Below the pieces are notes generated by a model, which was not told the origin of the DNA, made no database searches, and was given only the letters and a program-made list of their open reading frames with translations. A stretch of 64,000 nucleotides of DNA from Escherichia coli O157 typing phage 15, in sequence record KP869113, one strand, 5' to 3'. This document shows, piece by piece, positions 7,005 to 52,152 of the stretch (positions are counted from its first letter, which is position 1; each line of letters opens with the position of its first letter). The position numbers were made by a program, and so were the translations under genes.

Positions 7005-7026
7005 CCTTGTCAAGTACTTTGTCAAC
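7005..7026 (+). promoter_or_regulatory. conserved near-palindromic motif ccTTGTCAAGTACTTTGTCAAc upstream of plus-strand module
   Basis: same motif at 52131-52152 upstream of the DNA polymerase gene and, as cTTGTAAAGTACTTTA, in six intergenic cassettes of the 15-21 kb array. Confidence 0.4.
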
Positions 7027-7124
7027 AACTTTTTTAACTTGCAATAGTTCTTGACTTGTTGTATGGATTACTGTACCATCTTACTTAAAGCTGTAGGTCT
7101 GCCTTGTTCTACAAAGGAGACTTA

Positions 7125-7286
7125 ATGAGAAAATCAAATAAACCGAAGAAAGGTAAGAATACCAATCACTGTAAGGAATCCAAAAGGGTAGAGTTAATCT
7201 ACTATTCATCCTCTGAAATTGGTCTGTACCTGTTCTTTCAAAATTACAGAAGACAAGAGGATTATCTATGTGTAGTTCCCAATTAG
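7125..7286 (+). CDS. hypothetical small protein
   Basis: ORF with AGGAG 7 nt upstream of the internal ATG at 7125; first gene after promoter-like region. Confidence 0.35.
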   Translation: MRKSNKPKKGKNTNHCKESKRVELIYYSSSEIGLYLFFQNYRRQEDYLCVVPN

Positions 7287-7501
7287 AAATCGCAGATATT
7301 ATAGATTTATATCAAACTGCAAAGAGTCATGGCTATATAACCTCAATTGGAAAGAATAGTCACTATGATGCTTTGACTGGAATGTATTTCAGGGCAATGG
7401 CTCAATCTAGTGAACAACACTTAATGGTTTCTTCCAGTGAGTTTACTTCGTTTCTCTATTGCAGCAAAATTATAAATCGCAGGAGAACTGAAAAATGCTA
7501 A
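7268..7501 (+). CDS. hypothetical protein
   Basis: 77-aa ORF in tightly packed same-strand module. Confidence 0.4.
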   Translation: MCSSQLEIADIIDLYQTAKSHGYITSIGKNSHYDALTGMYFRAMAQSSEQHLMVSSSEFTSFLYCSKIINRRRTEKC

Positions 7502-8085
7502 CAGTAAGTTTTAATTACAATAGTGATGGCTCTGTATCAATTAATTCACCATATGCAAATGACCTACTTAAAGAGCTAGTCAATCAGTGTGATAGAGGTC
7601 TTCACTATGTTCAAAATTCTTTTAAACAGAAGACTATTGCTAATAACTTGATGCGTGTAACAGTAACGGCATCGAATCCAAATTATGACTTTGATAGTGA
7701 AAGTCCGTACTCATTAGTTGCGCTTGGAGAGAGCAGCCAATTCAAACTTGTTTGCCACGACTCAGAAACATTCCTTAAGGTCTTTTCCAACCTTATCCAT
7801 AATAATAAGTACAGCTACGTTGATGGTAGTGTAAATTTCTATCCAGCAAACTATACATGTTTGTTGGTTGATAATATGAGAAAAAGTAAGCAAGAGCCTA
7901 CGGAAATTTCATTTGATGTGAACTCTAGTCCAGACGCAGAAACAAGTAAGAACTTTGATATGAGTTACGCATTGTCACTTAGTAAGAAATCCGAGTTCAT
8001 TGATTATGTCAATGGATTTGGTTTTAAGTTTGATGAGAGTATGAATCTTAAAAAACTTAAGAACCTACTTAAGACCAAAGCTTAA
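7495..8085 (+). CDS. hypothetical protein
   Basis: 196-aa ORF, start overlaps previous stop. Confidence 0.55.
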   Translation: MLTVSFNYNSDGSVSINSPYANDLLKELVNQCDRGLHYVQNSFKQKTIANNLMRVTVTASNPNYDFDSESPYSLVALGESSQFKLVCHDSETFLKVFSNLIHNNKYSYVDGSVNFYPANYTCLLVDNMRKSKQEPTEISFDVNSSPDAETSKNFDMSYALSLSKKSEFIDYVNGFGFKFDESMNLKKLKNLLKTKA

Positions 8086-8092
8086 GTGTGAA

Positions 8093-8116
8093 TAGGGGCT
8101 GATGCCCCTTTAACTA
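8093..8116 (+). terminator. terminator-like hairpin
   Basis: aggggc-tgat-gcccct followed by a short T-rich stretch (ttaactattta). Confidence 0.35.
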
Positions 8117-8132
8117 TTTATAAGGATATTTA

Positions 8133-8504
8133 ATGAAAGCTAAGAGTGCAAAAGACTTTTATTGCTTCCTACAATCCTATATCAATTCCGTGCAAAATGG
8201 TGAAAGGTACAACCTTAATGATGTTATCCCAACACCTTTGACATGGAGACTCAGTAAATGGCCTGAAGAAGATATTACACCAACAATCGAACAATGCACC
8301 TACAAACCCGAAATCAATATTCCAGACTCTGAGAATCTATTATATCCAATGTTCCATATTGTTGGTCTTGGAAGATTCCTTATGGATATCCAGTATATAA
8401 TTGGTAAAGGTTATAAGGTTAAAGGTATTGTTGTTGGTGATGTATCTCCGAATCACAAAGGTTATTTTAGGCTAAACGCACATTTAGAGGCTGAAAAGAA
8501 ATGA
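8133..8504 (+). CDS. hypothetical protein, paralog of the N-terminal domain of the next gene
   Basis: shares KRY(D/N), WPE(A/E)DI, YKP(D/E), (F/L)MD(L/I)QY(A/I)I blocks with 8501..9382. Confidence 0.55.
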   Translation: MKAKSAKDFYCFLQSYINSVQNGERYNLNDVIPTPLTWRLSKWPEEDITPTIEQCTYKPEINIPDSENLLYPMFHIVGLGRFLMDIQYIIGKGYKVKGIVVGDVSPNHKGYFRLNAHLEAEKK

Positions 8505-9382
8505 TTAAAGCAAAGACTTACCCAGACTTCAAAGAGTTTGTGAAGGGCTTCATTGCAAACGTAAAGGCTGGTAAGAGGTATGATTTTAGAACATATCAAG
8601 AGGCTATTTTACCACTTACCTATAGCTCGTATTGGCCTGAAGCTGATATTGCAGAAGTTGAGAAGTTTGACTATAAACCAGACTATAAAGTCCCATTTAG
8701 TGATGAGTTGCTTTACAGTGTTGGTGCTCAAATGAGAACTTCTGACTTCTTCATGGACTTACAATATGCAATTATCAATGGTAAAGACGTTGATACAGTT
8801 TATTGTGAATGGCTGGCAAGAGTTAAACCATTCTCAATGTTGAATGCTAAGTTGAAGGACGCTATCAAGCCACCATCAATCACTCAGCAACCAACCAATC
8901 AAACAGTAAATGAAGGTGGTACACTTACCCTAAGCGTTATTGCAACTAATGCCACTGGATATCAATGGAAAAAGGATGGTGAGGATATCACTAGCGCCAC
9001 ATCTGCAACCTACACAAAACAGTCTGTAGAACCTTCTGATGCAGGTTCATACACTTGCGTTGTAACAGGTGCAGGTGGTTCTGTCACTTCTAGCCCTGCA
9101 ACGGTTACTGTTAACGCACTTCCGGTAATCACTCAACAGCCAACCAATCAAGAAATCAATGAAGGTGAGACCTTAACGCTGAATGTTGTGGCAACAGGTG
9201 CGACAGGTTACCAGTGGAAGAAAGGTGAGGAAGACATCCTTGATGCAACTACTGCAACTTACACCAAAGAAGGTGCGACCGCTGCTGATGCAGGAAGCTA
9301 CACCTGTGTAGTTACTGGTGCAGGTGGCTCTGTAACATCCAATGCAGCAACAGTTACAGTTAACCCAGCAGGGGAGGCGTAA
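8501..9382 (+). CDS. protein with two tandem Ig-like domains fused to a paralogous N-terminal domain
   Basis: two ~90-aa repeats ITQQPTNQ(T/E)(V/I)NEG.TLTL.V.ATGYQWKK...YT(K).......DAGSYTCVVTGAGGSVTS...ATVTVN, typical Ig-like beta-sandwich signature. Confidence 0.6.
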   Translation: MIKAKTYPDFKEFVKGFIANVKAGKRYDFRTYQEAILPLTYSSYWPEADIAEVEKFDYKPDYKVPFSDELLYSVGAQMRTSDFFMDLQYAIINGKDVDTVYCEWLARVKPFSMLNAKLKDAIKPPSITQQPTNQTVNEGGTLTLSVIATNATGYQWKKDGEDITSATSATYTKQSVEPSDAGSYTCVVTGAGGSVTSSPATVTVNALPVITQQPTNQEINEGETLTLNVVATGATGYQWKKGEEDILDATTATYTKEGATAADAGSYTCVVTGAGGSVTSNAATVTVNPAGEA

Positions 9383-9846
9383 TGCAACTCTCAAGAAAAG
9401 GTTTAGATGCTATTAAGTTCTTCGAAGGTCTGGAGTTAGAGGCTTACGAAGATTCTGCCGGAATCCCAACAATCGGGTATGGGACAATCCGTATTGACGG
9501 AAAACCTGTTAAGATGGGTATGAAAATTACTGCTGAACAAGCTGAACAGTATCTTCTCGCGGATGTTGAGAAGTTTGTTGCAGCAGTGAACAAAGCTATC
9601 AAGGTTCCAACTACTCAGAATGAGTTCGATGCACTTGTAAGTGAAACATACAACATCGGTATCACAGCTATGCAGGATTCCACATTTATCAAGCGCCACA
9701 ATGCTGGTAATAAGGTAGGTTGTGCAGAAGCTATGCAGTGGTGGAACAAGGTTACAGTCAAAGGTAAGAAGGTCACTTCAAACGGTCTGAAAAACAGACG
9801 TAGAATGGAAGCTGACATTTATCTTGACAGTGTATACCCAAAGTAA
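9382..9846 (+). CDS. endolysin, T4-type lysozyme (glycoside hydrolase family 24)
   Basis: N-terminal FEG.ELEAYEDSAGIPTIGYG catalytic region and overall T4 lysozyme-like sequence. Confidence 0.8.
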   Translation: MQLSRKGLDAIKFFEGLELEAYEDSAGIPTIGYGTIRIDGKPVKMGMKITAEQAEQYLLADVEKFVAAVNKAIKVPTTQNEFDALVSETYNIGITAMQDSTFIKRHNAGNKVGCAEAMQWWNKVTVKGKKVTSNGLKNRRRMEADIYLDSVYPK

Positions 9847-9855
9847 TATCTTCAT

Positions 9856-9882
9856 AGGCTCCTTCGGGAGCCTTTTTTATTT
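9856..9882 (+). terminator. rho-independent terminator
   Basis: aggctcc-ttcg-ggagcct perfect stem followed by tttttta. Confidence 0.7.
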
Positions 9883-9897
9883 TCTAAGGAGAAAGCT

Positions 9898-10296
9898 ATG
9901 AAACTTTGGGCTAGTGACTTTGGAACTTTTAAGTACACTCGTAATGGCTCGCTTGTACGCATTGTCGGGAACAATGTGGTTTCAAGAGGTGACAAGGTAT
10001 ATACACGGTTTACTGTAGAGCTTGTTGAGCTGTCACCTATTGAGTCTGTGAACAATGGCCTGTTCAAGTTTGAGACTTACAATGTCAACGAACATGGACA
10101 ATTCAACCCTCTTGGTGAAAGTGGACTTGATATTATTTCAGAGCACCCATTGACAAAAGAGCAACTCGCAAGTTATTATAAAACTGTTCTGGAAAGGCAG
10201 TTAGCAACACATGAACAAGAAGCTAACTATCATTTACAACATTGCGAAGCTTTAAGAGCAAAAATAGAACAAGCAGAGAGAGGTTTTTATGAATAA
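9898..10296 (+). CDS. hypothetical protein
   Basis: 132-aa ORF. Confidence 0.5.
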   Translation: MKLWASDFGTFKYTRNGSLVRIVGNNVVSRGDKVYTRFTVELVELSPIESVNNGLFKFETYNVNEHGQFNPLGESGLDIISEHPLTKEQLASYYKTVLERQLATHEQEANYHLQHCEALRAKIEQAERGFYE

Positions 10297-10678
10297 AGAG
10301 ATTCAAGTAAAAGTTGACACCTTTGGCCATGATGGTCGAGAAGATGCTGGACTTGCTGACGCAGTGATTTTTGAGTGTAATGGAAATATTAGTCTTCGCT
10401 TTACAGGCTCAGGTAGCACCCTTCGCAGAATGCGAGATGATGCAGATGGTTGCCCTGTATTTGGCTGGTATGACATGGAGTTTCCTCTTTACGCCATCCA
10501 TTATCCAGATGGTGGAGAAGACTGGACAACTCAATCAATCCGCGATGAGCTTAATGGCATTCCAGTTGAGCAAGAAGAGCAAGAGCCTGTTGAACTCACA
10601 TTCACTTTTATCAAAGAAGAGAAAGTTGGTGATTTGTCTGTAACTGAAGCAATTCAAGTCTCACAGGTTATTCGTTAA
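10289..10678 (+). CDS. hypothetical protein
   Basis: 129-aa ORF, ATGA start/stop overlap. Confidence 0.5.
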   Translation: MNKEIQVKVDTFGHDGREDAGLADAVIFECNGNISLRFTGSGSTLRRMRDDADGCPVFGWYDMEFPLYAIHYPDGGEDWTTQSIRDELNGIPVEQEEQEPVELTFTFIKEEKVGDLSVTEAIQVSQVIR

Positions 10679-10971
10679 TGAGTAAAGTACAGGTTGTTTT
10701 CCCTATTTGTGACTTCTCACTAGAGCGTGAACTTGACCTGTACGAAGAAATTACTGACGAAATTATCTGGTCTGTTGTAGAAGAGGCTATCAAGAAGCTG
10801 TATGGTGGCCTCTTAAATCCATCAAGTAAGAAGTTAAGCACTAAGCAAGTAGCTGACCCATATGTTTCATACGATGCCTACAACAAGCCTTTTGAAAATA
10901 CCTGCTTTGACCTTATGGTAGGTAATAACAAAGTCAACTATTTCTTCGTCAGAGAGTTTAACGATGAGTAA
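10678..10971 (+). CDS. hypothetical protein
   Basis: 97-aa ORF. Confidence 0.45.
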   Translation: MSKVQVVFPICDFSLERELDLYEEITDEIIWSVVEEAIKKLYGGLLNPSSKKLSTKQVADPYVSYDAYNKPFENTCFDLMVGNNKVNYFFVREFNDE

Positions 10972-11308
10972 GCTCCATGTCACAGTTTACAAAAACTTCT
11001 CAGATATCAAAGAGTCTTTAACAAATAAGCTTGACTTACAACGTAAAAGACTCTTTTTAATGTATGACATAGACAACTACAACCATCCTAAAGAGTTTAA
11101 CTACAAAGATGGTACAAAGGTTGTTGAGTTTGAAGATTCTGTGACGGTGTATGTCAAGCATGACTTACCAGCAAAGTATATAGGGATGTTAGAGTACTAC
11201 ATATTCAAACATACTGGTATGCGTGGTGAATCTGTTAAGATATCTTCTATAGAAGTTTTTGAGAAACCTAACACACAACTTAAAAAGTATTTAATGAGGA
11301 AACTGTAA
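10964..11308 (+). CDS. hypothetical protein
   Basis: 114-aa ORF. Confidence 0.45.
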   Translation: MSKLHVTVYKNFSDIKESLTNKLDLQRKRLFLMYDIDNYNHPKEFNYKDGTKVVEFEDSVTVYVKHDLPAKYIGMLEYYIFKHTGMRGESVKISSIEVFEKPNTQLKKYLMRKL

Positions 11309-11889
11309 TGTCAGAAGAACATGAGCATATCCAACCAGAAGTTACATTAGTAAAACATTTCGGAAATGTAGAAGGCTGTGTAGCACTTTTTCAGACTAAC
11401 ATCAATTCTCCAGTCAAACTGTGCAAATTGACGATAAACACTAACAACATCAGTGTATGCGTGAATGAAGAAGTACAATACTTCAAATTCAATGATAAAG
11501 AGGTTGATGCTGCACTACTGAAATACAGAGCAAATCTTGAAAAAGATATTGACCATAAAGAGGTTGTGAGTCTCTTTGCAGACCTACATAAGCTTCTTGA
11601 TAAGGTTGAAAAAAGAACATACTACATGAATAATGGCTCTATCATTACCACTATGATTTCACCATGTATCTCTGAGCCAATCTTCACAGATGATGGTGCT
11701 TATTATATTGTAGCTTCGGCAGTGTCTGATTGGTGGTTAAAAAATAACGCCCTGAAAACAGTGATTGATGCTATCAGAGAACACATCCCTACATTTAGTC
11801 CGTGGAAGGGTAAAGGTGATGAATTTATCGCACTGTTGAGTGAAGAGAGTAACAAGCGCAGTGCATTACTGCCTAAAAAATACTCTTGA
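11308..11889 (+). CDS. hypothetical protein
   Basis: 193-aa ORF. Confidence 0.5.
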   Translation: MSEEHEHIQPEVTLVKHFGNVEGCVALFQTNINSPVKLCKLTINTNNISVCVNEEVQYFKFNDKEVDAALLKYRANLEKDIDHKEVVSLFADLHKLLDKVEKRTYYMNNGSIITTMISPCISEPIFTDDGAYYIVASAVSDWWLKNNALKTVIDAIREHIPTFSPWKGKGDEFIALLSEESNKRSALLPKKYS

Positions 11890-11961
11890 CCGAGTATACA
11901 ATATTGATTATGATGGGAGCTATCGAGAGGTAGTTCCCTTTTTAGTTTCTGGAGAATAGAT

Positions 11962-12507
11962 ATGGCTAAAGTGAAAGAACACGATAAAATTATTTTGTAT
12001 GTTAAACAGAATCCTTCAAAGAGTGTTGAGGCTGTTGTAACACACATCTCACACAATGGAACAGTTTATTTTCAACCACTGAAGAACTTAGACTTTGACA
12101 CAACACCAAACCACACATTTAGTACTTCTGCAAGACTGTGTGCTGGAACTGTATACTCGACTGCTGAGATTGAGTCCTTATCTTTCACAGGTGCTTACAA
12201 AAACTTTATAGGGATTGCTTTAAAGGACTCTGAGGAATCTTTTAAATTCTTCATGGAGACCAATAAAGGCTGTTATGCACATGTTATGCCAGTCTATAAG
12301 AAAGTTGACACAGAACTTACAAGCAAGTGCGAAGAGATTAGCAGCGACCTGAAGGAGCGTAAAACAGCTATTCAGAATGCTATTTACATCATTGAGAGGG
12401 ACCACTTAGAAGTTCTTTTCAGAGATATGCTAAAAGCAGGGTTTACCCCAAACGAAATTACAAGAGAAACACAACGCCAGTTCAGAAACGCTATGGTGAA
12501 AGAATGA
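11962..12507 (+). CDS. hypothetical protein
   Basis: 181-aa ORF. Confidence 0.5.
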   Translation: MAKVKEHDKIILYVKQNPSKSVEAVVTHISHNGTVYFQPLKNLDFDTTPNHTFSTSARLCAGTVYSTAEIESLSFTGAYKNFIGIALKDSEESFKFFMETNKGCYAHVMPVYKKVDTELTSKCEEISSDLKERKTAIQNAIYIIERDHLEVLFRDMLKAGFTPNEITRETQRQFRNAMVKE

Positions 12508-12722
12508 AAAAACTAACTACAGTTGAAGATTACTACAAACTGTCCTTGTTAGAACAGTATCGCAGAAGCCAGAATATCAGAAAATGCTATGGTAAACACG
12601 CTGAAGGTGACTTTTACCATTGTTACGATGCAGATTTAAAAGGTGTAACACCTAGAGGAAAAGTTCTGCAAAGATTTGTTGACCTTGAATGGAACAAGAG
12701 ATTGAGAGGGGTTGGAAAATGA
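12504..12722 (+). CDS. hypothetical protein
   Basis: 72-aa ORF. Confidence 0.4.
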   Translation: MKKLTTVEDYYKLSLLEQYRRSQNIRKCYGKHAEGDFYHCYDADLKGVTPRGKVLQRFVDLEWNKRLRGVGK

Positions 12723-13222
12723 TTTACGAAGAAAGATATAAGATAGATTACCAGAAGACTGGTCATCATGTCTCTTTAAGAGTAACCAAACCAAATGGAG
12801 ATACCGGTATCATAGCACATTTTGGTGGTGATTATTGGTATGGTACAGGTTGCTTTGAAGGCTACACTCAAGAATACTTGAAAGCTTTCTACAGAGACTT
12901 TACAAACGACTACAACAGGGTTGTTGACGAAAAGAATAAGTGCATTAAGCATGAATACCATGCCAGAGGTTGTCTGAATATTGTTATGATACTGGCTTTC
13001 TTCTTAGCAATGTTACTGGCAGTATCAGCAATTAGCTGCATAGCTCAAGATTTGACAATTACACAGATTACTGCAAAGCTACATGATATCTGGTACTTGT
13101 ATACTGTTCCTTTAGCTGGTATTATCATCTCACTAATAAGATTCAGAGTTCATAAGAAACGACTTAAGGATTCCGAGGTTAAACTTGAAGAGGTAAGTAA
13201 AGAATGCAACCTACAATTATAG
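12719..13222 (+). CDS. membrane protein (two predicted TM helices)
   Basis: start moved to internal ATG with GAGGGG RBS; hydrophobic stretches LNIVMILAFFLAMLLAVSAISCIA and YLYTVPLAGIIISLI. Confidence 0.45.
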   Translation: MIYEERYKIDYQKTGHHVSLRVTKPNGDTGIIAHFGGDYWYGTGCFEGYTQEYLKAFYRDFTNDYNRVVDEKNKCIKHEYHARGCLNIVMILAFFLAMLLAVSAISCIAQDLTITQITAKLHDIWYLYTVPLAGIIISLIRFRVHKKRLKDSEVKLEEVSKECNLQL

Positions 13223-13298
13223 CTGTATGTGTTCGTTTTGCAATCGCTGAAATGATTAACAAGGCAATCTTAAAAGATGCCTATGGAGAGACTAAGTA

Positions 13299-13523
13299 AT
13301 GATTAAGACGCCTGTACCAATTTTTGGATTTCCTTCTATAGAAGAGTTCAAAGTTTACCTTGACAAAAACTTCTACAACGAGCAACCTGTTACTTTGCTG
13401 AAGAGTGACTTATCAGAGCTTCTTGATATGGTTATCAAGGCAACTTCTGAGAAGGAACCTGAACAGAAAGCTGAGAAGAAGACTAGTAAGAAATCCGATA
13501 AGAAGACTGAAAAGTCTGAGTAG
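13299..13523 (+). CDS. hypothetical protein with Lys/Glu-rich C-terminus
   Basis: 74-aa ORF. Confidence 0.45.
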   Translation: MIKTPVPIFGFPSIEEFKVYLDKNFYNEQPVTLLKSDLSELLDMVIKATSEKEPEQKAEKKTSKKSDKKTEKSE

Positions 13524-13575
13524 TAGCTTGAGGGGTTACTTGATAGCCCCTTTGTAGAACTTAGAAGGTAGCGAA

Positions 13576-13998
13576 ATGAAAGAGCTTATTGGTAAAAGAT
13601 TGACAGTTTACTGCTCTAAAACAAAGAAACCACTTACTTCTGTGAAGGTCTTTGATGTTGACACCACTGGTGTAGAGTACCCAATCCAATGCACAATAAT
13701 TACTCCATTCCATGCAGATGATATGGATTTTAAAGAGTGTGAAGTGATATCTTTTAATGCTGATGGGTATTGGAGAGGTAAGTTAAACAAGCAATCAGAA
13801 GATTTTGATATGCAAATCATTATCAATGAAGGCTATATCGGTGTAAAAGATATCCTCGTAGAAGCCTATGAAGAAGGTATAATTGATATTGTGCATGATG
13901 TTGAAAAAGCTTTAAAGCTTGTTATGCCGCATTTAGAATCTGGAAAGCTGACTTTAGAGATGCTTAATAGGATTATTCGGAGAGCTTATGAAAATTAA
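13576..13998 (+). CDS. hypothetical protein
   Basis: 140-aa ORF. Confidence 0.5.
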   Translation: MKELIGKRLTVYCSKTKKPLTSVKVFDVDTTGVEYPIQCTIITPFHADDMDFKECEVISFNADGYWRGKLNKQSEDFDMQIIINEGYIGVKDILVEAYEEGIIDIVHDVEKALKLVMPHLESGKLTLEMLNRIIRRAYEN

Positions 13999-14452
13999 AG
14001 AAGTAGTGCAAAGAGCAATGCTTGATAATTCTACTAAAGATGAGATGTACACAGAAATTTGTGATAAGTTGAACTGCTCAAGACATGCTGCTAAGGTTCT
14101 TGTACATTGTTTTATTTGGGAATGCTCAGAAGCCTATATGAAACACGTAGCTTTTGAGAGTTCTCATTTACTCGGTGATGTAAAAATAGGTGTAGCACTA
14201 AAAGAGCCTGAGATGAAAACAGTACCTAAGGTCGGTAATGTGTATAAACTAAAAAATTTTATTACAGGCGAGATTGTTGCAGAAGGTGAAGTGCAACAGG
14301 TTTATCATGATGGTAAATATCTGTTTAAGATATTCGAGTATGATAGTCGTTACAGACACTTATGTGGTATTACATTTTTAGTTTCAGAGGATGACCTCAT
14401 CAAGAACAATAGTAATAAATTCGCAGTACCAGAATATCAAGTTTTACGATAA
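13988..14452 (+). CDS. hypothetical protein
   Basis: 154-aa ORF. Confidence 0.5.
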   Translation: MKIKEVVQRAMLDNSTKDEMYTEICDKLNCSRHAAKVLVHCFIWECSEAYMKHVAFESSHLLGDVKIGVALKEPEMKTVPKVGNVYKLKNFITGEIVAEGEVQQVYHDGKYLFKIFEYDSRYRHLCGITFLVSEDDLIKNNSNKFAVPEYQVLR

Positions 14453-14465
14453 TGGTGTGATAGAT

Positions 14466-15014
14466 ATGGAAAAAGATAACTTAAAAGATGTTGAAGGTAA
14501 CTATCTAGTCCTTGACTGGAAGGATGTTCGGGAAGCACTCTCCGAAGAAAATCTTGACTGGTTCGAACAAATTATCTTTGCAGTACGGCATAACCGAGAA
14601 GTTGAAAATGGTAAAGAGCCACTTGAAGGAATCTTTGTAGATAGGTCTTATCCATTCTATGAAGACACTTTGCAGAAAGTTAAGATGTACTTTAGACAGA
14701 AGAACCGTAAAGTGGTCACTATGGTATCTCTTGGTGGACAGAATATGTCTGTGATGGAAGATATTAATCCTAAGAGACCGAGTAAAGGTATCTGTATAAA
14801 AATCACAGGACATGAAGAGTATATCTCAGTGGATGACTTTAGTGCATTCTGTAATGGCTCTTGTGTCTTTAATGGTTTTCACTATGATATCCGAGTGTAC
14901 CCAATCAAGGGAGATGATATCATGATGCAGGTATTCGATAATAACAACGGCTTTACTCATTTTTATCAGACAACCAAGTCATCACTAAAAACAGTTCTGG
15001 AAACACTGATTTAA
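14466..15014 (+). CDS. hypothetical protein
   Basis: ORF 14391..15014 trimmed to internal ATG to avoid 62-nt overlap; start uncertain. Confidence 0.45.
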   Translation: MEKDNLKDVEGNYLVLDWKDVREALSEENLDWFEQIIFAVRHNREVENGKEPLEGIFVDRSYPFYEDTLQKVKMYFRQKNRKVVTMVSLGGQNMSVMEDINPKRPSKGICIKITGHEEYISVDDFSAFCNGSCVFNGFHYDIRVYPIKGDDIMMQVFDNNNGFTHFYQTTKSSLKTVLETLI

Positions 15015-15307: not shown

Positions 15308-15532
15308 TTAGAAGCCTCTATACACCTCACCCCAATAATGGTAGTGAGATTCCTCGTTTATGGCTTCTTTTACGGCATCTTTCCAGAAGTCATCAGTAGG
15401 GTTATAATCTGGTATCACCTGCTGAATCAGCATTTTGATAAGGTCAAAGGTATTATCTGTTCCACCGATATCGAATTTTGCATCAAGTTGGTGGCAGCCA
15501 TAAGCATTAACAGTTACGCGGATAGTTGACAT
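15308..15532 (-). CDS. hypothetical small protein
   Basis: 74-aa ORF preceded by family-A cassette with AGGAG RBS. Confidence 0.5.
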   Translation of the reverse strand: MSTIRVTVNAYGCHQLDAKFDIGGTDNTFDLIKMLIQQVIPDYNPTDDFWKDAVKEAINEESHYHYWGEVYRGF

Positions 15533-15600
15533 AATTTAGAATCTCCAGTTTAGGACTTTATTTAGTGGGGAAGGTCATTCCCTCCCCGTTGTTTAGTAAT
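15533..15600 (-). promoter_or_regulatory. upstream cassette family A (hairpin GGGGAAGG-tcatt-CCCTCCCC plus RBS)
   Basis: gaatctccagtttaggactttatttagtggggaaggtcattccctccccgttg; near-identical copies upstream of five other genes in this array. Confidence 0.6.
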
Positions 15601-15857
15601 TTACTGCATATTGGCGTAGGTTGCAAGCCTTTTTTCGTTGTATTTTGTCAGAATTTCACAAGATAGAACATCGTACATTGTAACCGCTTTGCTTTTGTCG
15701 AGGTCAAAAAAGCCAAATGCTTTACCATCTTTGAATCCGACAACTTCGTAAGATTCTTTAATGATTTCACCATTGAACAAATCACTTTCGATACGGTGAA
15801 ACAACGCTACGTCTTCTTTGTCAGTTGCAATCTGCAATAGTGTGGTTAATTCTACGT
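15601..15857 (-). CDS. hypothetical small protein (start corrected to internal Met)
   Basis: the longer ORF 15601..15969 runs through a family-A cassette; ATG at 15857 is preceded by the conserved ctaggagattcaaaa RBS. Confidence 0.5.
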
Positions 15858-15931
15858 GTTCCATTTTTGAATCTCCTAGTTTAAGGACTTTACTTAGTGG
15901 GAAGGTTAATCCCTCCCCGTTGATTGACAAT
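15858..15931 (-). promoter_or_regulatory. upstream cassette family A
   Basis: ttttgaatctcctagtttaaggactttacttagtgggaaggttaatccctccccgttgattg. Confidence 0.6.
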
Positions 15932-16462
15932 TTACAGACTTTTGATTGTCTCGTCAATATCTTTTTCAATATCTTTTAAAGTTTTTTCTAAGTTCTTGAT
16001 ATTGAAGGATAAGCCTTCACCGAGAGTCTTAGAATAACTGCTAGGACGTAAATCATAAAGGCCAATTTGTTCTACATTGGAGAGGTTGACCATTTCACCG
16101 CTTACATCATAAGCTATTGATACGGTGTTTTCAGGGGCTTTATAGAACTTGTTAAGATTCTTGATAGAACGTTCATAAGCCATTTTATAACCATTTAAAA
16201 GGTCTTTAACGTGGTTGCGAACGTTTTTACACTCATCTAAGTAAATACCTAAGAATAGCGGTAACAGTTCTGCTACAGCTTGCATAAAGTGAGATACTAC
16301 AACAGTAGAAACATTACGACGATGTATATAATAAGCCCCGTTTTCTGATTTAGTGATAGTTGCAAAGTGTACACCGTTGCAACGAAATTCGAAGGTATCT
16401 TTAACGGGTTTAGTCATAACGTTAGATGAGCGAATGTAGTTGATAGCTTGAAACTTGTTCAT
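15932..16462 (-). CDS. hypothetical protein
   Basis: 176-aa ORF behind family-A cassette. Confidence 0.55.
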   Translation of the reverse strand: MNKFQAINYIRSSNVMTKPVKDTFEFRCNGVHFATITKSENGAYYIHRRNVSTVVVSHFMQAVAELLPLFLGIYLDECKNVRNHVKDLLNGYKMAYERSIKNLNKFYKAPENTVSIAYDVSGEMVNLSNVEQIGLYDLRPSSYSKTLGEGLSFNIKNLEKTLKDIEKDIDETIKSL

Positions 16463-16530
16463 TTTGAATCTCCTAGTTTAAGGACTTTACTTAGTGGGGA
16501 AGGTCATTCCCTCCCCGTTGATTAGTACTA
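16463..16530 (-). promoter_or_regulatory. upstream cassette family A
   Basis: conserved hairpin plus RBS. Confidence 0.6.
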
Positions 16531-16683
16531 TACTTGTTTTGATTTGCCTTTGCAAGCAATTTTTTAAGTTTATCTATAAAGAATCTATTAAGTGAATCCC
16601 TTTTAGATAACCCCCTCGAACAAAGTTACCAATGTCAATGGGTATTGTCAACACTTTTTTAAAAGTTTTTTGTAAGTTATTGA

Positions 16684-17025
16684 TTAACTTATGAAGATTT
16701 TTTCAGGCTTTACATAGCTGATACGCTGACTTTTTAGCAGGTCATCCCAGATTAAAGCGGCAATATGTGCATAACCGGATTCACGTAAAAGCTTCATTGT
16801 TTTACTTCTCGTTTCAAAACGGCTTGCGTAGTATTCACTGTTCAAGGTCGTTTTATTCCCTTCGTTATCTGTATGGATGATTTGCATCACTTGAAAGGGG
16901 CTTACACCCTCGCCTTTGTTCCACTGTTCAAAGTATTTTAGGCACTGCATAGGTGACATCTTATCACTTACTTGAGTTGACCAAGATGAGCCAGCTTTAT
17001 CGGTAATTACGGTTACATAAGCCAT
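16684..17025 (-). CDS. hypothetical protein
   Basis: 113-aa ORF behind family-B cassette. Confidence 0.5.
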   Translation of the reverse strand: MAYVTVITDKAGSSWSTQVSDKMSPMQCLKYFEQWNKGEGVSPFQVMQIIHTDNEGNKTTLNSEYYASRFETRSKTMKLLRESGYAHIAALIWDDLLKSQRISYVKPEKIFIS

Positions 17026-17110
17026 TTTAGAATCTCCAGTTTAGGATTGAGTGGTAAAGCTCTTTATCTGGGGCTTACTATACAGACTAATAAGCCCCAT
17101 GTAAAGTACT
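17026..17110 (-). promoter_or_regulatory. upstream cassette family B (hairpin GGGGCTTA...TAAGCCCC plus palindromic TTGTAAAGTACTTTA motif)
   Basis: gaatctccagtttaggattgagtggtaaagctctttatctggggcttactatacagactaataagccccatgtaaagtacttta; minus-strand reading gives TTTACA-17nt-TAAAGT (sigma70-like). Confidence 0.55.
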
Positions 17111-17359
17111 TTAAGCGTCTTTATATTCTATCTCTGTGCACTCACCTTTTACTAGCTCAAAGGTCCAAATAATTCGTTTATACTCAATCACTACTACAGT
17201 AACAAGGTCAGTCCTCTTCTCATTGGTTTTAAAGTCTATTGTGTGGGTATACTCATAACTAGTCTTATCCTTAATTTCCCCGTAGCGTCTACACTCTTTA
17301 TAGACTTCATCCATTAAGCCATTGCTAACCATGTTTTTTAGTTGAGTTTTAGTATACAT
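17111..17359 (-). CDS. hypothetical small protein
   Basis: 82-aa ORF. Confidence 0.5.
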   Translation of the reverse strand: MYTKTQLKNMVSNGLMDEVYKECRRYGEIKDKTSYEYTHTIDFKTNEKRTDLVTVVVIEYKRIIWTFELVKGECTEIEYKDA

Positions 17360-17452
17360 TTTTTGGAATCTCCTAGTTTAAGGACTTTACTTAGTGGGGA
17401 AGGTCATTCCCTCCCCGTTGATTGATAATTTACAGACTTTTATCAGGCTTGT
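17360..17452 (-). promoter_or_regulatory. upstream cassette family A
   Basis: conserved hairpin plus RBS. Confidence 0.6.
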
Positions 17453-17686
17453 CTAGTCTTTTTCAATGATAATTTCATATTGACCATCGACACTGTCGAA
17501 ATAGATTCCTTCGTCATCTTCTGTCTTAAAGTAACATTGTATATCATCACTGGCGGGGTAGTCTTGTCTTGCTATCTGGCAAACTTGAATAGCATTTTCT
17601 TTACTTCCTGTAAACTCTTCAAGCCCTTTAAAGTCACATGAATGGCCGTTACAAATGGAAAGGATGAGATAAATGGTTGTAAGCAT
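17453..17686 (-). CDS. hypothetical small secreted or membrane protein
   Basis: 77-aa ORF with hydrophobic N-terminus MLTTIYLILSICNG. Confidence 0.45.
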   Translation of the reverse strand: MLTTIYLILSICNGHSCDFKGLEEFTGSKENAIQVCQIARQDYPASDDIQCYFKTEDDEGIYFDSVDGQYEIIIEKD

Positions 17687-17752
17687 GATTTAAGCCCTCT
17701 AAAAGCCCCTGTAAGGGGTTAATCAGTGTTTATAAGGTGAATGTATAGGTTT

Positions 17753-18295
17753 TTAGAAAAAGACCTTTAAATCACTCTCTACAATGTTTTCTGTCAGTGT
17801 ATCCATGATGTCACAAAAAACCTGAATACTGTCGGATTGTTGGATACTTTTAGCAAGTAGCTCCAATGTTTCATCAAGATAATTTAAATTTGGGTTATCC
17901 AGTGAAGGGAGACAAAAAGGTGAATACATAGCGTTGAACTCTGTTGTATAGACCTTTTTAATCCAATTTACATCAAAGTACTCTGTAAAGCTTGCTATAT
18001 TTGACATGTTATCACAAGAATAATCATCATTTAGCTCATCCTCTGGAATGTCAAGTTCTAAGATAACAATATTTTGAGTTTTCATCTGAAAAGCTGCCGT
18101 GATAGTGGCATTTCCTAGAGCTTGCTGGATACCTTCCGATGCTATCTCTTCCTCATCATCACCATAGAGTTTATTTTCTGGGTACACGTAAAAATTGCCG
18201 TCCATATCCGAACAATTCCATACACCTGATGGTTTATCACCGTTATTAATCAGGTTGATAAAGTTTTCTTGAGTAGTACCGTGAAAGCATTTCAT
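17753..18295 (-). CDS. hypothetical protein
   Basis: 180-aa ORF behind family-B cassette. Confidence 0.5.
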   Translation of the reverse strand: MKCFHGTTQENFINLINNGDKPSGVWNCSDMDGNFYVYPENKLYGDDEEEIASEGIQQALGNATITAAFQMKTQNIVILELDIPEDELNDDYSCDNMSNIASFTEYFDVNWIKKVYTTEFNAMYSPFCLPSLDNPNLNYLDETLELLAKSIQQSDSIQVFCDIMDTLTENIVESDLKVFF

Positions 18296-18388
18296 TTTGA
18301 ATCTCCTAGTTTAAGGATTTAGTGGTAAAGCTCTTTATCTGGGGCTTACTTTATCGAACTATAAGCCCCTTGTAAAGTACTTTATCAG
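18296..18388 (-). promoter_or_regulatory. upstream cassette family B
   Basis: conserved hairpin ggggcttac...ataagcccc plus palindromic motif. Confidence 0.55.
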
Positions 18389-18586
18389 TTAATTTTTGAC
18401 AACTTTTAAAACTGCAAGATAACCTAAGCAATAAGAATCACCGAAGAGAGTTCTACCCATGAAAGAATCATCTTTGATATCCTTTGCAGTGACTGTTTTT
18501 TCTACGCCGTGGGAAAGAACTACATCACCAACTTTAATGTCTTTGATGTGCGTGGTTTCAATGGTTAAACCGTTGATAATAGCCAT
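18389..18586 (-). CDS. hypothetical small protein
   Basis: 65-aa ORF. Confidence 0.45.
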   Translation of the reverse strand: MAIINGLTIETTHIKDIKVGDVVLSHGVEKTVTAKDIKDDSFMGRTLFGDSYCLGYLAVLKVVKN

Positions 18587-18687
18587 TTTGAATCTCCTAG
18601 TTTAAGGACTTTACTTAGTGGGGAAGGTCATTCCCTCCCCGTTGATGTGTAATTTAATCTATCTAAAAATCAGTGTCAATAAAATTT
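18587..18687 (-). promoter_or_regulatory. upstream cassette family A plus conserved gatgtgtaatttaatctatctaaaaatcagtgtcaa box
   Basis: the box recurs at 19500-19540. Confidence 0.55.
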
Positions 18688-19092
18688 TTAGAGTTCTGCA
18701 TAAATTGCGTCGCAGATGTCACGAAAGTCATGATTTGCCAAATTACGTTGTAACCAAGTGGCAAAGAAATCAGCGATTGCAAAATTAGCATCATACTCAA
18801 CAGATAGCCACACTTTCACGGCAAATCTAAACATTTTCAAGTCTAACTCTTTATTCATTACCTTAGATTTGCCTAACATGTCGACCATTTCATATTGTGC
18901 ACCGTCTAGCGTGATACCTGCTGCAACGTCAGCCAATGAGTTTTTTACGTTTTCAACGTCTAAGATAACGCTTTGAATCTTTCCGATAATGTTGTGCAAT
19001 GTTTCATCCGGTGCTGATGATGTAATAACATTGATTCGATTAACGGTTAAACGTGCTTTTAAGATTGACAACTCACGATTATTAATAGCCAT
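18688..19092 (-). CDS. hypothetical protein
   Basis: 134-aa ORF. Confidence 0.5.
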   Translation of the reverse strand: MAINNRELSILKARLTVNRINVITSSAPDETLHNIIGKIQSVILDVENVKNSLADVAAGITLDGAQYEMVDMLGKSKVMNKELDLKMFRFAVKVWLSVEYDANFAIADFFATWLQRNLANHDFRDICDAIYAEL

Positions 19093-19177
19093 TTTAGAAT
19101 CTCCAATTTAGGATTGAGTGGTAAAGCTCTTTATCTGGGGCTTACTGTACAGACTAATAAGCCCCCTGTAAAGTACT
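19093..19177 (-). promoter_or_regulatory. upstream cassette family B
   Basis: conserved hairpin plus palindromic motif. Confidence 0.55.
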
Positions 19178-19450
19178 TTATACTAAATGCAGTTTTTTAC
19201 CTTTTACTATGATGTAACTTGATGTGCTATTGCTACATACATCCTGATAAATTCTGCGCAAACGTCCTTCATAGTATACTTTCCAGCTAGTTGGAATCTT
19301 TTTGCCGTATCCGGTAGCAGTTTTTTGGAGTCCTGCGACTTGCCAATCTAAGATATGTTGCTCAGCCTGTAAATCCTCAAAGTGCATCACACCGTCTACA
19401 TAGTGACGTAGAGTGACATTTAAAGTGCGACCGTTGTTAGTAGTATACAT
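19178..19450 (-). CDS. hypothetical protein
   Basis: 90-aa ORF. Confidence 0.5.
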   Translation of the reverse strand: MYTTNNGRTLNVTLRHYVDGVMHFEDLQAEQHILDWQVAGLQKTATGYGKKIPTSWKVYYEGRLRRIYQDVCSNSTSSYIIVKGKKLHLV

Positions 19451-19539
19451 TTTAGAATCTCCTAGTTTAAGGACTTTATTTAGTGGGGTGTTTATTGCCT
19501 CCCCGTTGATGTGTAATTTAATCTATCTAAAAATCAGTG
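19451..19539 (-). promoter_or_regulatory. upstream cassette family A (variant hairpin ggggtgtttattgcctcccc)
   Basis: variant of the family-A hairpin with the same flanking RBS block. Confidence 0.5.
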
Positions 19540-19872
19540 TCAACAGTTTTGTTTTCGTTTGCTCAACTCTTGAACAATTACAGTATGATAGTCTTTTAAG
19601 TCACTAATATTTAAAGCATTTATCAGAGAATTATAATCATCGACTAATTGAAAATCATCTTTGAAAATGTCGCTGATTTGATAAGTTCTCGCCCTGAATC
19701 TGAAGCTCATTTCTAACCGCTTTAATTGTTCATCGCTCAACCGCTCTAGAAAGCTCATTACAAGGCTATTGCTAACCTGTTGTGTGATTGCCTTATTTGC
19801 TAGATTATAGGCTTTATATGCCTTATAGAGCGCGAAAATGGCAATGATTGCAGTGATACCAGTCATTAACAT
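19540..19872 (-). CDS. hypothetical protein with C-terminal hydrophobic segment
   Basis: 110-aa ORF. Confidence 0.45.
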   Translation of the reverse strand: MLMTGITAIIAIFALYKAYKAYNLANKAITQQVSNSLVMSFLERLSDEQLKRLEMSFRFRARTYQISDIFKDDFQLVDDYNSLINALNISDLKDYHTVIVQELSKRKQNC

Positions 19873-20162: not shown

Positions 20163-20250
20163 TTTTGAATCTCCAGTTTAGGATTGAGTGGTAAAGCTCT
20201 TTATCTGGGGCTTAAGATACCAACTTTTAAGCCCCTTGTAAAGTACTTTA
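20163..20250 (-). promoter_or_regulatory. upstream cassette family B
   Basis: conserved hairpin plus palindromic motif. Confidence 0.55.
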
Positions 20251-44465: not shown

Positions 44466-44471
44466 TAGTTA

Positions 44472-49749: not shown

Positions 49750-49757
49750 TATCTCTT

Positions 49758-50501
49758 TTAAACTTTAATGATGGCTCTTAGCTTGTTCTCAAGGTCTGCA
49801 AGAGTACCATTATTATGAATAATGTCACGCTCATATTTTGTAGAAATCCCATTTTCTGAAACATGTGATGAAACCTTGTCCACATTGTCTCTTTTTACTT
49901 CAATAGTTTGGTGTGCAAATCTACTCAGCCATTCAGCTTCAGAGTCAAATCTTAAATCACTGATTAAGACAAAACCATATTGATTTCTAAGTGAGCACAT
50001 TTCATGGAATCTAACCATTCTTTTTTCAAGGTCTTTAGACCAGAACTTGTCGCCCATTACTTTACGGACAACTTCAGTACCCCAAATCTGTTGAATTTGT
50101 CTTGATGAGAATTTATACTTTTTACTAAATCCCAGACGTGTTAATAGGGTAGGTTTAGCAACCTTCTTAAGCTCCATGATTAATCGTCCGGTTAACTCTG
50201 ACATAAGCTTGAAGTCCATATGGTAACGTTCATCTCTGAAGGTGAACTCCATAGCTTCCGTAACTTTAAACATCAGTTCAGGATATGATAAGTCAAATAC
50301 TTGTGGAGTCTCTTTAGTTTCACCATACAGGTCATTCCAAGTCAGGTCAAATATCTTTGATGCAGACAGTTTAAGGTTGTCTGCAAAGGCCATTACAGCA
50401 ACATTGTAGCCGTACTCATCCTCTAAGATGTTCTTCACAATAGAACATGAGGTGTCTTTTCCAGAACGTGCCTTTCCAGTAAATGCGATAATATTACTCA
50501 T
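49758..50501 (-). CDS. deoxynucleoside monophosphate kinase-like protein
   Basis: N-terminal IAFTGKARSGKDT P-loop resembles T4 gp1 dNMP kinase. Confidence 0.55.
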   Translation of the reverse strand: MSNIIAFTGKARSGKDTSCSIVKNILEDEYGYNVAVMAFADNLKLSASKIFDLTWNDLYGETKETPQVFDLSYPELMFKVTEAMEFTFRDERYHMDFKLMSELTGRLIMELKKVAKPTLLTRLGFSKKYKFSSRQIQQIWGTEVVRKVMGDKFWSKDLEKRMVRFHEMCSLRNQYGFVLISDLRFDSEAEWLSRFAHQTIEVKRDNVDKVSSHVSENGISTKYERDIIHNNGTLADLENKLRAIIKV

Positions 50502-50562
50502 TTTATCTCCCTTAATTACTAAAAAGCCCCCAACTAAGGAGGCTTGTAAGATTTATAAAGAC

Positions 50563-51363
50563 TTAGTGCAGTTGCTCAGCAGACTCTTTTTCAGCCATAG
50601 CTGAGATTTGCTTCACAAAATCATCACCGAAGTTAATGCGTAGTTTCTCTTCAATGATTGAAGCACCGATGTTCACCAAAACATCATTGATTGCTTGCAT
50701 ACTAACGCCACCAGTCATCTCTTCAATGAACTCAATACTTACACCCATCATCTGTGAAAGTTGGATTAGTGCAACGATATTCATCATCGTAGAGATAGCT
50801 GGAATCATCAGTGCAACTTTCACCTGAAGAGGTTCTATATCAGCTACAGAGTCATTTTCAACAGCTTCTTCCAAAGACTCTTTAGTTTGCTGGATAATTT
50901 CTTTGATTCGTGGGCTTAACTCTTCTACGCCCCAATCAAGTTTTTCATATCGTGAAAGTTTCTCTTCCATGCGCTTCTCAAGAACTGCCATAACAGCACT
51001 TGTTGATGAGATTAGTGTGTCAATAAGGAAATCAGTATCCTTAGTCAGCAATAGTTCCTTTTCTTCATCTGACATCCTGATATAGTCATTCTTTTGCATT
51101 TCATAAAAAATGAACTCTGCAAGCGCATCAACACCGACTGCAATAGATGCAAGGGCAAGTGTAGTATCTGACAACATCATATTAACCTGCTCTGCAAAAG
51201 CACCGTTATCAGTTTTATCTTCAGGCAAGTTATAGCTTTTTGGCATAAACTGTTCTGTATAGTTATTTCCACGAAGAATCATAGCCATGCTTTCTACAGC
51301 ATTGATTAAAAATGCTTCATCAATACCTTTTTCTTTAAGCATTTGGTCTACAGTAGTATTCAT
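50563..51363 (-). CDS. hypothetical protein
   Basis: 266-aa ORF. Confidence 0.45.
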   Translation of the reverse strand: MNTTVDQMLKEKGIDEAFLINAVESMAMILRGNNYTEQFMPKSYNLPEDKTDNGAFAEQVNMMLSDTTLALASIAVGVDALAEFIFYEMQKNDYIRMSDEEKELLLTKDTDFLIDTLISSTSAVMAVLEKRMEEKLSRYEKLDWGVEELSPRIKEIIQQTKESLEEAVENDSVADIEPLQVKVALMIPAISTMMNIVALIQLSQMMGVSIEFIEEMTGGVSMQAINDVLVNIGASIIEEKLRINFGDDFVKQISAMAEKESAEQLH

Positions 51364-51364
51364 A

Positions 51365-51964
51365 TTATTTCTCTCTCAGTTGGTTAAGTTTCTTTCTAGA
51401 GCATTTTAAGTTTTCAGATGAAGAAAAGTCAAGTGTCTTTTCAGAACGTGGATAGTAATGCCTGTCCCAAGAAGTTTCAACATCGTTAATCAGTGATGCT
51501 AGATTACACAGGTCTGTACCACTTTGCAACCTCTTTTTAAGAGAATCTAGTAAAGCAACTGTATCTTTAGCTTTACGTCTAGCTATAGCAACGTCTTTCA
51601 TATGCTCGAACACAGAGCATTTTAAGTCATCTTCATAGTCTTCTGATAACTCTATTTCATGTTGTATATCAACCATTCTCCTGTGATGGTGAGCATATTC
51701 CCGTTGAGCAGCAATGTCAAGTTCNNNNNNNNNNNNNNNNNNNNNNNNNNNNNNNNNNNNNNNNNNNNNNNNNNNNNNNNNNNNNNNNNNNNNNNNNNNN
51801 NNNNNNNNNNNNNNNNNNNNNNNNAACTCTATTTCATGTTGTATATCAACCATTCTCCTGTGATGGTGAGCATATTCCCGTTGAGCAGCAATGTCAAGTT
51901 CTTCCAACTTCTGCAAAGCTCTAACAAAGTCAGCTATGTCTGGGTGAACAAACATTTTCTGCAT
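51365..51964 (-). CDS. hypothetical protein (interrupted by artefactual gap)
   Basis: ORF spans N run 51725-51824 with duplicated flanks. Confidence 0.3.
   Translation of the reverse strand: MQKMFVHPDIADFVRALQKLEELDIAAQREYAHHHRRMVDIQHEIEXXXXXXXXXXXXXXXXXXXXXXXXXXXXXXXXXXELDIAAQREYAHHHRRMVDIQHEIELSEDYEDDLKCSVFEHMKDVAIARRKAKDTVALLDSLKKRLQSGTDLCNLASLINDVETSWDRHYYPRSEKTLDFSSSENLKCSRKKLNQLREK
51725..51824. other. assembly gap (100 N) flanked by identical 76-bp sequence
   Basis: 51649-51724 equals 51825-51900. Confidence 0.95.
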
Positions 51965-52130
51965 GTAAGCCTCTTTTAAGTAACTATTAAGTTTTAATCT
52001 TTTATCTTAACGTATTCTATACGTTATACTTTAAAGCTTTTTAAAAGCTATTAAATAATCTTTTAAGAGTTTTAAAGTATCTGTATAGTTAAACTGTTAA
52101 GTAACCTTTTAAGTAAAAACCCACTTCGCA

Positions 52131-52152
52131 AAGATTAACACCTTGTCAAGTA
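52131..52152 (+). promoter_or_regulatory. conserved motif ccTTGTCAAGTACATTGTCAAc upstream of DNA polymerase gene
   Basis: same motif as 7005-7026; followed by tataat-like box. Confidence 0.4.

Follow-up and report, generated by a model that had tools for sequence, protein, structure and literature searches.

What reads the sequence TTGTMAAGTACWTTGTCAA, which recurs in two distant intergenic regions of Escherichia coli O157 typing phage 15, and which genes does it serve? The window analysed here comprises 64,000 nucleotides (nt) of sequence record KP869113 from this phage. The original prediction regarded the motif as a near-palindromic operator at which a dimeric DNA-binding protein would coordinate a 7.1-kb plus-strand module, the DNA polymerase gene and six repeated cassettes. 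Our analysis points to a different answer: with a probability of about 0.8, the motif is the −35 region of leftward (minus-strand) host sigma-70-type promoters in a Felix O1-like phage.

The window represents a Felixounavirus with 98–100% identity to E. coli O157 typing phage 1 and wV8. Its gene map consists of minus-strand genes and 22 tRNAs as far as position 6875, plus-strand genes at 7125–15014 (the 7.1-kb module), minus-strand genes at 15308–51964 and plus-strand genes from 52222 onward, with DNA polymerase first. This is the layout of Felix O1, the genes of which are organised in four transcriptons diverging between genes 40/41 and 96/97 (PMC3185647); comparison of the gene maps placed these divergence points exactly at the two loci designated here as sites A and B. 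Given this layout, the two exact motif copies lie in the two divergent control regions. According to the Felix O1 genome paper, the phage has no RNA polymerase gene and presumably relies on the polymerase of its host, for which no known modifier was found; the same paper states that the temporal regulation of transcription is not understood (PMC3185647).

The shared motif and its strand

A search of the window for TTGTMAAGTACWTTGTCAA revealed exactly two exact matches, at 7007–7025 and 52143–52161 (both on the plus strand), with 0.00 expected from 100 shuffles, and the identity between these two copies reaches 26 nt with one mismatch. When up to three mismatches were allowed, seven matches were obtained as compared to 0.23 expected, adding those at 4891, 18370, 20236, 20615 and 21087. 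The claim that the motif is common to distant promoter regions is thereby borne out, as its frequency in the shuffle comparison lies far above the level expected from base composition. The core AAGTACTTKACAAGG occurred 25 times with up to three mismatches (5.6 expected), and all ten matches with up to two mismatches were located on the minus strand, upstream of minus-strand genes.

TTGACA is the −35 consensus of sigma-70 promoters, the full consensus being TTGACA-17-TATAAT. Read on the minus strand, the exact copies take the form GTTGACAA[A/T]GTAC-TTGACA-AGGTG, and the cassette copies the form ACTGATAAAGTAC-TTTACA-AGGGGCTTA...(17 nt)...TAnnnT. We propose the promoter reading because the minus strand yields TTGACA or TTTACA and because every match with up to two mismatches stands upstream of minus-strand genes. 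The motif is real and non-random, but it lies on the strand opposite to the one originally given.

Several details of the original prediction had to be revised. The position 7005–7026 was about right, whereas 52131–52152 was about 10 nt away from the second copy. The six cassettes of family B were confirmed, but just four of these reach the limit of three mismatches; those at 17097–17111 and 19164–19178 have only the 15-mer core AAGTACTTTACA.GG in common with the motif. A further site proposed at 27417 turned out to be just TTGTCAA at 27430–27436, with 7 of 19 positions mismatched to the motif. The supposed central palindrome AAGTACTT is present at 7012–7019, but the second exact copy reads AAGTACAT at this place. 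Control of the two plus-strand units found no support in the position of the motif, which is not consistent with respect to them. Candidate rightward promoters were identified for the 7.1-kb module at 7051–7079 (TTGACT-17-TACCAT, separate from the motif) and for the DNA polymerase gene at 52163–52191 (TTGCTT-17-TAATGT, back to back with site B), and their −35 boxes lie 26 bp (site A) and 1 bp (site B) away from the motif. With such distances, a role of the motif as an upstream element of rightward promoters was rejected. Its placement is consistent, in contrast, if it is taken as the −35 region of leftward promoters: an A-tract precedes it, and TAnnnT follows 17–18 bp downstream.

Doubled −35 hexamers at three probable leftward promoters

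A weight-matrix scan of each intergenic gap, from which the best leftward promoter per gap was taken, selected the distal TTGACA-17-TAGGCT at site A, the distal TTGACA-18-TAATCT with a TGn before the −10 box at site B, and TTGACA-17-TAACTT at a third place, site C, which is absent from the original prediction. Site A (6997–7035, minus strand), also supported by the motif match and by conservation, is composed of an A-tract followed by GTTG (7026–7035), a distal TTGACA (7020–7025) that would serve as the −35 box, AAGTAC (7014–7019), a proximal TTGACA (7008–7013), AGGTG (7003–7007) and the −10 box TAGGCT (6997–7002). It aims at the DUF5681 gene (6504–6875), an RNA-binding-protein gene and the tRNA cluster. 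Site B (52132–52170, minus strand), which rests on the same three kinds of evidence, comprises an A-tract with GCAAG (52162–52170), the distal TTGACA (52156–52161), ATGTAC (52150–52155), the proximal TTGACA (52144–52149), AGGTGT including the TGn (52138–52143) and the −10 box TAATCT (52132–52137), and it aims at the gene 51365–51964 and the replication and nucleotide-metabolism transcripton. Site C (16623–16661, minus strand), identified by the weight-matrix scan, a search for tandem hexamers and conservation, reads AAAAAAGTG, TTGACA (16646–16651), ATACCCA, TTGACA (16633–16638), TTGG and TAACTT (16623–16628). An ordinary cassette promoter follows about 100 nt downstream of it, and site C is kept in SUSP1, Mordin and about 22 IMG/VR contigs; the annotation of Mordin places an open reading frame (ORF) of 46 amino acids in the roughly 100 nt between site C and the next promoter.

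The tandem search (TTGACA-N3-10-TTGACA) returned three pairs in the window as compared to 0.03 in shuffles, and exactly three pairs, orthologous to these, were found in each of the complete genomes of SUSP1 (Suspvirus) and Mordin (Mooglevirus). GenBank annotators had independently assigned minus-strand sigma-70 promoters to site A in AYO145A and to site B in ASO1B, the latter as TTGACA-17-TTAATC. The distal hexamers of sites A and B are preceded by the A-tracts AAAAAAGTTG and AAAAAGCAAG, at about −46 to −40, and the same build of an A-tract, three to four nucleotides and TTGACA also occurs at the strong sites 6491, 16651, 18679 and 21386. The proximal hexamer is positioned inside the spacer, at about −23 to −18, and always 4–7 bp upstream of the −10 box that it shares with the distal one. 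At none of the three sites and in none of their relatives does it have a conserved −10 box of its own at 16–18 bp; its interpretation as a second, overlapping promoter was rejected, since such a box is absent at every site and relative examined. No stem-loop encloses the two sites with exact motif copies. A T4-type late promoter was also considered just downstream of site A, where TATAAATA is found at 6988–6995, and was discarded as this sequence is not conserved (TAATAAAA, TTCTAAAT).

For the analysis of conservation, orthologous regions were retrieved by anchors in the surrounding sequence, which kept the motif from influencing their choice, and bases were counted per column; as the sequences are related, the following counts do not represent independent events. 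Among 10 distinct sequences of site A both hexamers are invariant, whereas the hexanucleotide that separates them varies at five positions (AAGTAC, AAGGAC, AATGAC, TTCCTC, AGCCTC), and the −10 box occurs as TAGGCT, TAGCCT or TAAGTT with T, A and T fixed. Likewise, both hexamers are invariant in six distinct sequences of site B, separated there by ATGTAC, ATGCAC, ATACAC, ATGCGC, ATTCAC or AACCAC, with GCAC being more frequent in the centre than the GTAC of the original motif. In 18 distinct sequences of site C the hexamers again do not change, while five of seven intervening bases and all four bases before the −10 box do; this box is TAACTT, TAGATT or TACATT. Neither hexamer varies anywhere in Felixounavirus, Suspvirus and Mooglevirus, and the −10 box always keeps its T, A and T. 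Clearly, the constrained elements are the distal −35 box, these three bases of the −10 box and the proximal hexamer, and the centre of the supposed palindrome is unconstrained.

The spacing of the hexamers is N6 at sites A and B, N7 at site C and N4 in Hafnia phage Zyzzx, corresponding to periods of 12, 12, 13 and 10 bp. In Zyzzx the region upstream of the polymerase gene reads TTGACA-GAAC-TTGACA-AGGGGTT-TATTGT, with the distal hexamer pairing with the −10 box; Pectobacterium phage Wc4 has a single TTGACA-17-TAGGCT at this place, and no tandem pair is present in region A of Erwinia phage phiEa21-4. The doubled box therefore characterises the Felix O1, SUSP and Moogle phages as well as some of their neighbours, and its spacing is variable.

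The long leaders downstream of sites A and B (6898–6914, 6967–6978, 51990–52115) are almost invariant across the three genera. Both carry ACTTAAAAGGTT 29–30 nt past the proximal hexamer, and small perfect palindromes (CTTAAAAGCCTTTTAAG, AGCTTTTAAAAAGCT, AACGTATAGAATACGTT) were observed in them. The near invariance suggests that these leaders contain further regulatory or RNA elements, or an origin. A second candidate motif, CTTAAAAG, was rejected as a regulatory signal: its 23 occurrences (4.8 expected) are mostly coding and represent Leu-Lys codons co-directional with the genes, and only its clusters in these two leaders are still noteworthy.

Proposed promoter function and alternative explanations

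The sequence features expected of sigma-70 promoters are found at all these loci. A perfect TTGACA is present twice at each of sites A, B and C and at the promoters 27436 and 4897, and TTTACA takes its place in the six cassettes. TAnnnT follows 17–18 bp downstream, the distal hexamers pairing with TAGGCT (17 bp), TAATCT (18 bp) and TAACTT (17 bp) and the cassette boxes with their −10 boxes at 17 bp. All copies are intergenic and aimed at minus-strand genes, and the density of TTGACA in intergenic DNA is about twice that in coding DNA.

A number of observations weigh against this interpretation. No mapped transcription start sites of Felix O1-like phages were found in the literature, and promoters are not a topic of the wV8 genome paper. 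With only 3–4 of 6 positions matching TATAAT, the tandem promoters have weak −10 boxes, and the leaders behind them are long, roughly 110–160 nt. A plain consensus scan returned 51 promoter-like sites as compared to 52.5 in shuffles, so consensus matching alone proves nothing. In Felix O1, transcripts of genes 41, 42, 97 and 98 measured by reverse transcription polymerase chain reaction were maximal at 25 min and not at 5 min (PMC3185647), which fits better with a regulated promoter than with a simple constitutive one. Finally, a plain promoter leaves the strict conservation of the second hexamer unexplained, and TTGnCAA is a 7-bp palindrome, so that a protein reading these half-sites would also be conceivable.

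The anatomy of the sites, their strand, their position relative to genes and their pattern of conservation can be read directly from the sequences. We infer both a role of the second hexamer and initiation at sites A, B and C and in the cassettes, the latter from established knowledge of promoters. E. coli RNA polymerase with sigma-70 would bind the A-tract, which resembles an UP element, use the distal TTGACA as −35 box and, 17–18 bp further downstream, open the DNA at a weak −10 box, which is TAGGCT in site A and TG-n-TAATCT in site B. Transcription would start near 6990, 52125 and 16616, and in the cassettes about 7 nt after the −10 box, where the stem-loop would act on read-through transcripts. 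In each of the two divergent control regions, the exact copy would represent the main leftward promoter. For the second hexamer, the options are an additional capture of polymerase, a regulator site, use by a modified polymerase, or a relic. Our preferred guess is that it gives sigma region 4, or a regulator, a second place to dock and thereby tunes polymerase capture or timing. One can speculate further, though only tentatively, that the doubled −35 box is a functional architecture in which a docking site in the spacer for sigma region 4 or a competitor was selected at the three main leftward promoters and sets the speed of capture or the timing of the transcriptons; as the build TTGACA-N5/6-TTGACA-N5-TAnnnT is also seen next to gp55, just upstream of it, in many unrelated contigs of T4-like phages from marine and fresh water, such an arrangement may be a general, hitherto undescribed trick of phage promoters.

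An operator in the broadest sense of the original prediction, at which a DNA-binding protein of phage or host would recognise the TTGnCAA pair and repress or activate the units at both divergent regions together, is unlikely on the present evidence. Each TTGACAA is indeed a palindrome of 7 bp around an odd centre, and CTTGACAAG forms one of 9 bp; however, the central dyad which should join them is not conserved, AAGTACTT becoming AAGTACAT, AAGGAC.., AATGAC.., TTCCTC.. or ATGCAC.. while the flanks stay fixed. Both half-sites have, without exception, an A as their centre base on one and the same strand, so that in every genome seen they form, at all three sites, direct repeats in −35 orientation, and their spacing of 12, 12 and 13 bp here and 10 bp in Zyzzx is a poor fit to a rigid dimer; moreover, the cassette copies contain only a single good half-site. 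The palindromic dimer operator of the original prediction was accordingly not confirmed: its centre is unconserved, its halves are direct repeats and its spacing is variable. The idea of an operator draws some strength from the second hexamer, which is strictly conserved without a −10 partner, and from the maximum at 25 min of the genes downstream of sites A and B in Felix O1, which would fit regulation. A candidate protein is the Cro/C1-type helix-turn-helix protein encoded at 58603–58902 in the polymerase-side operon, although nothing links it to the motif sites. This plus-strand gene specifies 99 amino acids with a match to Pfam HTH_3 (E 5e-10). Host sites for PhoB, PhoP, FNR, CRP, IHF, TyrR and sigma-54, compared by eye, were discarded as none fits the half-site or the spacing.

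Two further explanations retain the promoters and differ in what they make of the proximal hexamer. Very improbable, in our opinion, is a dual mode of use, in which unmodified polymerase engages the distal hexamer and a later phage factor displaces sigma region 4 to the proximal one with the same −10 box; as a consequence, which we consider just as improbable, the three main leftward promoters would stay active or change strength while promoters with an ordinary −35 box are shut off. The constant position of the conserved proximal hexamer 4–7 bp upstream of the shared −10 box would suit such a switch, and the three promoters head transcriptons with middle and late genes. It would also have an analogue in the paused complex at lambda PR', where sigma region 4, freed from the beta-flap, binds a −35-like element near a −10-like element. 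Against it, there is no experimental hint of a switch, and a factor resembling AsiA or gp39 is not known in these phages, none having been found in the Felix O1 study (PMC3185647). Hardly more probable is the view that the second hexamer has no function of its own and was left behind by a 12-bp slippage duplication or by unequal recombination of cassettes. The 12-bp units at sites A and B are identical at 9 of 12 positions (GTTGACAA[A/T]GTA vs CTTGACAAGGTG), the proximal unit TTGACAAGG(T/G)G also forms the −35 region of the single promoters 27436 (minus strand) and 59904 (plus strand), and cassettes of the PeSL type are known to recombine (PMC2839356). Nevertheless, both hexamers are invariant at three loci in three genera beside a spacer that varies, which is a signature of selection and argues against a relic.

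Cassettes, neighbouring elements and known systems

The six cassettes constitute repeat family D1, with copies of about 103 nt at 17.0–21.1 kb between ORFs of 65–180 amino acids. Each contains TTTACA, a 17-nt spacer and a −10 box which differs among copies (TATAGT, TAAAGT, TACAGT, TATCTT) with T, A and T kept; AAAGTAC is shared upstream of TTTACA. The cassettes end in a Shine-Dalgarno sequence and an ATG about 45 nt past the −10 box (...GGAGATTC....ATG). A stem-loop with the inner stem GGGGCUUA/UAAGCCCC and the outer stem CUUUA/UAAAG encloses the whole promoter and folds with −16 to −23 kcal/mol (z −2 to −4.9); no U-run was seen after the stem in the six copies. All six are on the minus strand: AAAGTAC-TTTACA-17-TATAGT at 17077–17118, with the stem GGGGCTTA...TAAGCCCC; ACTGATAAAGTAC-TTTACA-17-TAAAGT at 18348–18389 (motif copy 18370–18388); AAAGTAC-TTTACA-17-TACAGT at 19144–19185; TTTACA-17-TATCTT at 20214–20255 (motif copy 20236–20254) and again at 21065–21106 (motif copy 21087–21105); and TTTACA-17-TAAAGT at 20593–20634 (motif copy 20615–20633), each within its enclosing stem-loop. 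Two single minus-strand promoters were found in addition. One, between rIIA and rIIB at 27407–27436, corresponds to the site originally placed at 27417 and is a TTGACA-18-TAGAAT promoter of the sequence TTGACA-AGGGGCTTTGAAGCCCCT-TAGAAT with the hairpin GGGGCTTTGAAGCCCC in its spacer, and the other, AAAAAAGTTC-TTGACA-18-TAAAGT before the tRNA cluster at 4868–4912, has three mismatches to the motif; in both, stems lie in or around the spacer. The early-region cassettes are apparently composite promoter/attenuator cassettes of the PeSL type.

Further promoter-like elements were observed in the window. A second cassette family (repeat families D2/D3, 15530–19545, minus strand) has 5–6 intergenic copies of TTGACA-17-TAAATT with the hairpin GGGGAGGGAATGACCTTCCCCAC in the leader and the same Shine-Dalgarno/ATG end as family B. 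Two more single promoters contain pieces of the motif: TTGACAAGGTG-...-TACCTT is located at 59904–59932 (plus strand), and TTGACA-18-TAGGCT at 36508–36537 (minus strand) has an unusual −10 box identical to that of site A. The inverted repeat AGCTATAA...TTATAGCT flanks the promoter TTGACA-17-TATTTT at 57940, upstream of the HTH_3 gene. The DNA polymerase ORF (52222–55866, plus strand) codes for 1214 amino acids as compared to about 900 in relatives, with DNA_pol_A as its only Pfam domain, and about 1 kb of the region 51000–56000 remained unaligned even to the closest genomes. An intein or a comparable in-frame insertion is probable in the vicinity of the C-terminal third, at about 54.8–55.85 kb.

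A loose scan of IMG/VR with TTGACA-N5-CTTGACAA gave mostly unrelated matches but revealed a similar arrangement in marine T4-like phages. In about 26 contigs, from T4-like phages of marine and fresh waters, TTGACA-N6-TTGACA-N4-5-TAnnnT occurs with even the same AAAAGTTG upstream; the element is located directly upstream of the late-sigma gene gp55 and antisense to it (for example at 3911–3929 of one contig). At 80 gp55 loci, retrieved regardless of the motif, the distal hexamer and TAnnnT are largely kept and the proximal hexamer only partly, as CTTGNC; S-PM2 has back-to-back hexamers at this position (3015–3035 of the locus examined). Past the −10 box, GCGGTGTTCC is conserved as well, and an Rfam search of one such marine locus gave no match. 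The element could represent a promoter, either antisense or divergent, or else act at the RNA level in the leader of gp55. The doubled arrangement is, in any case, not unique to Felix O1-like phages.

Elements of the kind described here are familiar, and earlier predictions in relatives covered parts of the picture; new is the conserved doubled −35 box that both divergent regions have in common with a third site. The timing of transcription is an admitted gap for Felix O1-type phages, which are widely used in Salmonella and E. coli typing, biocontrol and therapy. Our results place the main leftward promoters of both divergent regions, add a third and recast the repeats of the early region as promoter/stem-loop cassettes, which provides a concrete and testable promoter map for Felix O1-like phages. 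If the second −35 box is functional, it would enlarge the repertoire of sigma-70 promoters and offer a feature for the design of synthetic phage promoters; if it is not, the motif would represent simply ordinary promoters read on the wrong strand.

Among known systems, the sites of lambda CII and P22 C1 are TTGC-N6-TTGC direct repeats around a −35 region. They are similar to the sites described here in that direct repeats starting with TTG overlap the −35 region of a promoter, but they have a fixed 10-bp period and flank a poor −35 box, whereas the repeats found here have a period of 10–13 bp and are themselves perfect −35 boxes. A CII-type activator site was therefore rejected, with TTGACA repeats at a 12–13 bp period in this phage and no evident CII homologue.

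The PeSL cassettes of T4-type phages, described by Arbiol et al. 2010 (PMC2839356) and Comeau et al. 2014 (PMC4122927), consist of an AT-rich upstream part with the stop codon of the previous gene, a strong sigma-70-like promoter with a stem-loop mostly between its boxes or over the −10 box, and a Shine-Dalgarno sequence and ATG at the end. The same order of upstream stop codon in an AT-rich stretch, −35 and −10 boxes, stem-loop, Shine-Dalgarno sequence and ATG was found in the family-B cassettes and at 27436 and 4897. The cassettes combine a promoter with a stable stem-loop between or over its boxes, end in Shine-Dalgarno/ATG and repeat between small early-region ORFs of unknown function. The present phage, in contrast, belongs to the Ounavirinae and is not of T4 type, and sites A and B are not enclosed by a stem-loop.

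At the locus of site A, the promoter P41 was predicted in Felix O1 (Whichard et al. 2010, PMC3185647). It shares the distal TTGACA with our assignment but was paired with a −10 box TATAGG at N15. The Felix O1 paper claims that no sequence similar to P41 exists in the 96–97 region; the second hexamer, site B and site C were not noted there, and the cassette was listed just as a 57-bp direct repeat (PMC3185647).

A limited search of the literature returned no description of a tandem −35 hexamer or one within the spacer. The closest counterparts are E. coli sigma-70 promoters with an UP-like A-tract, which have in common with sites A, B and C a perfect −35 box, a spacer of 17–18 bp, TAnnnT, an A-tract at about −46 to −40, the TGn (at site B), the orientation towards downstream genes and the use of host polymerase, the only one available. 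The phage promoters differ from them by their weak −10 boxes and by a second perfect TTGACA in the spacer, which is as conserved as the first.

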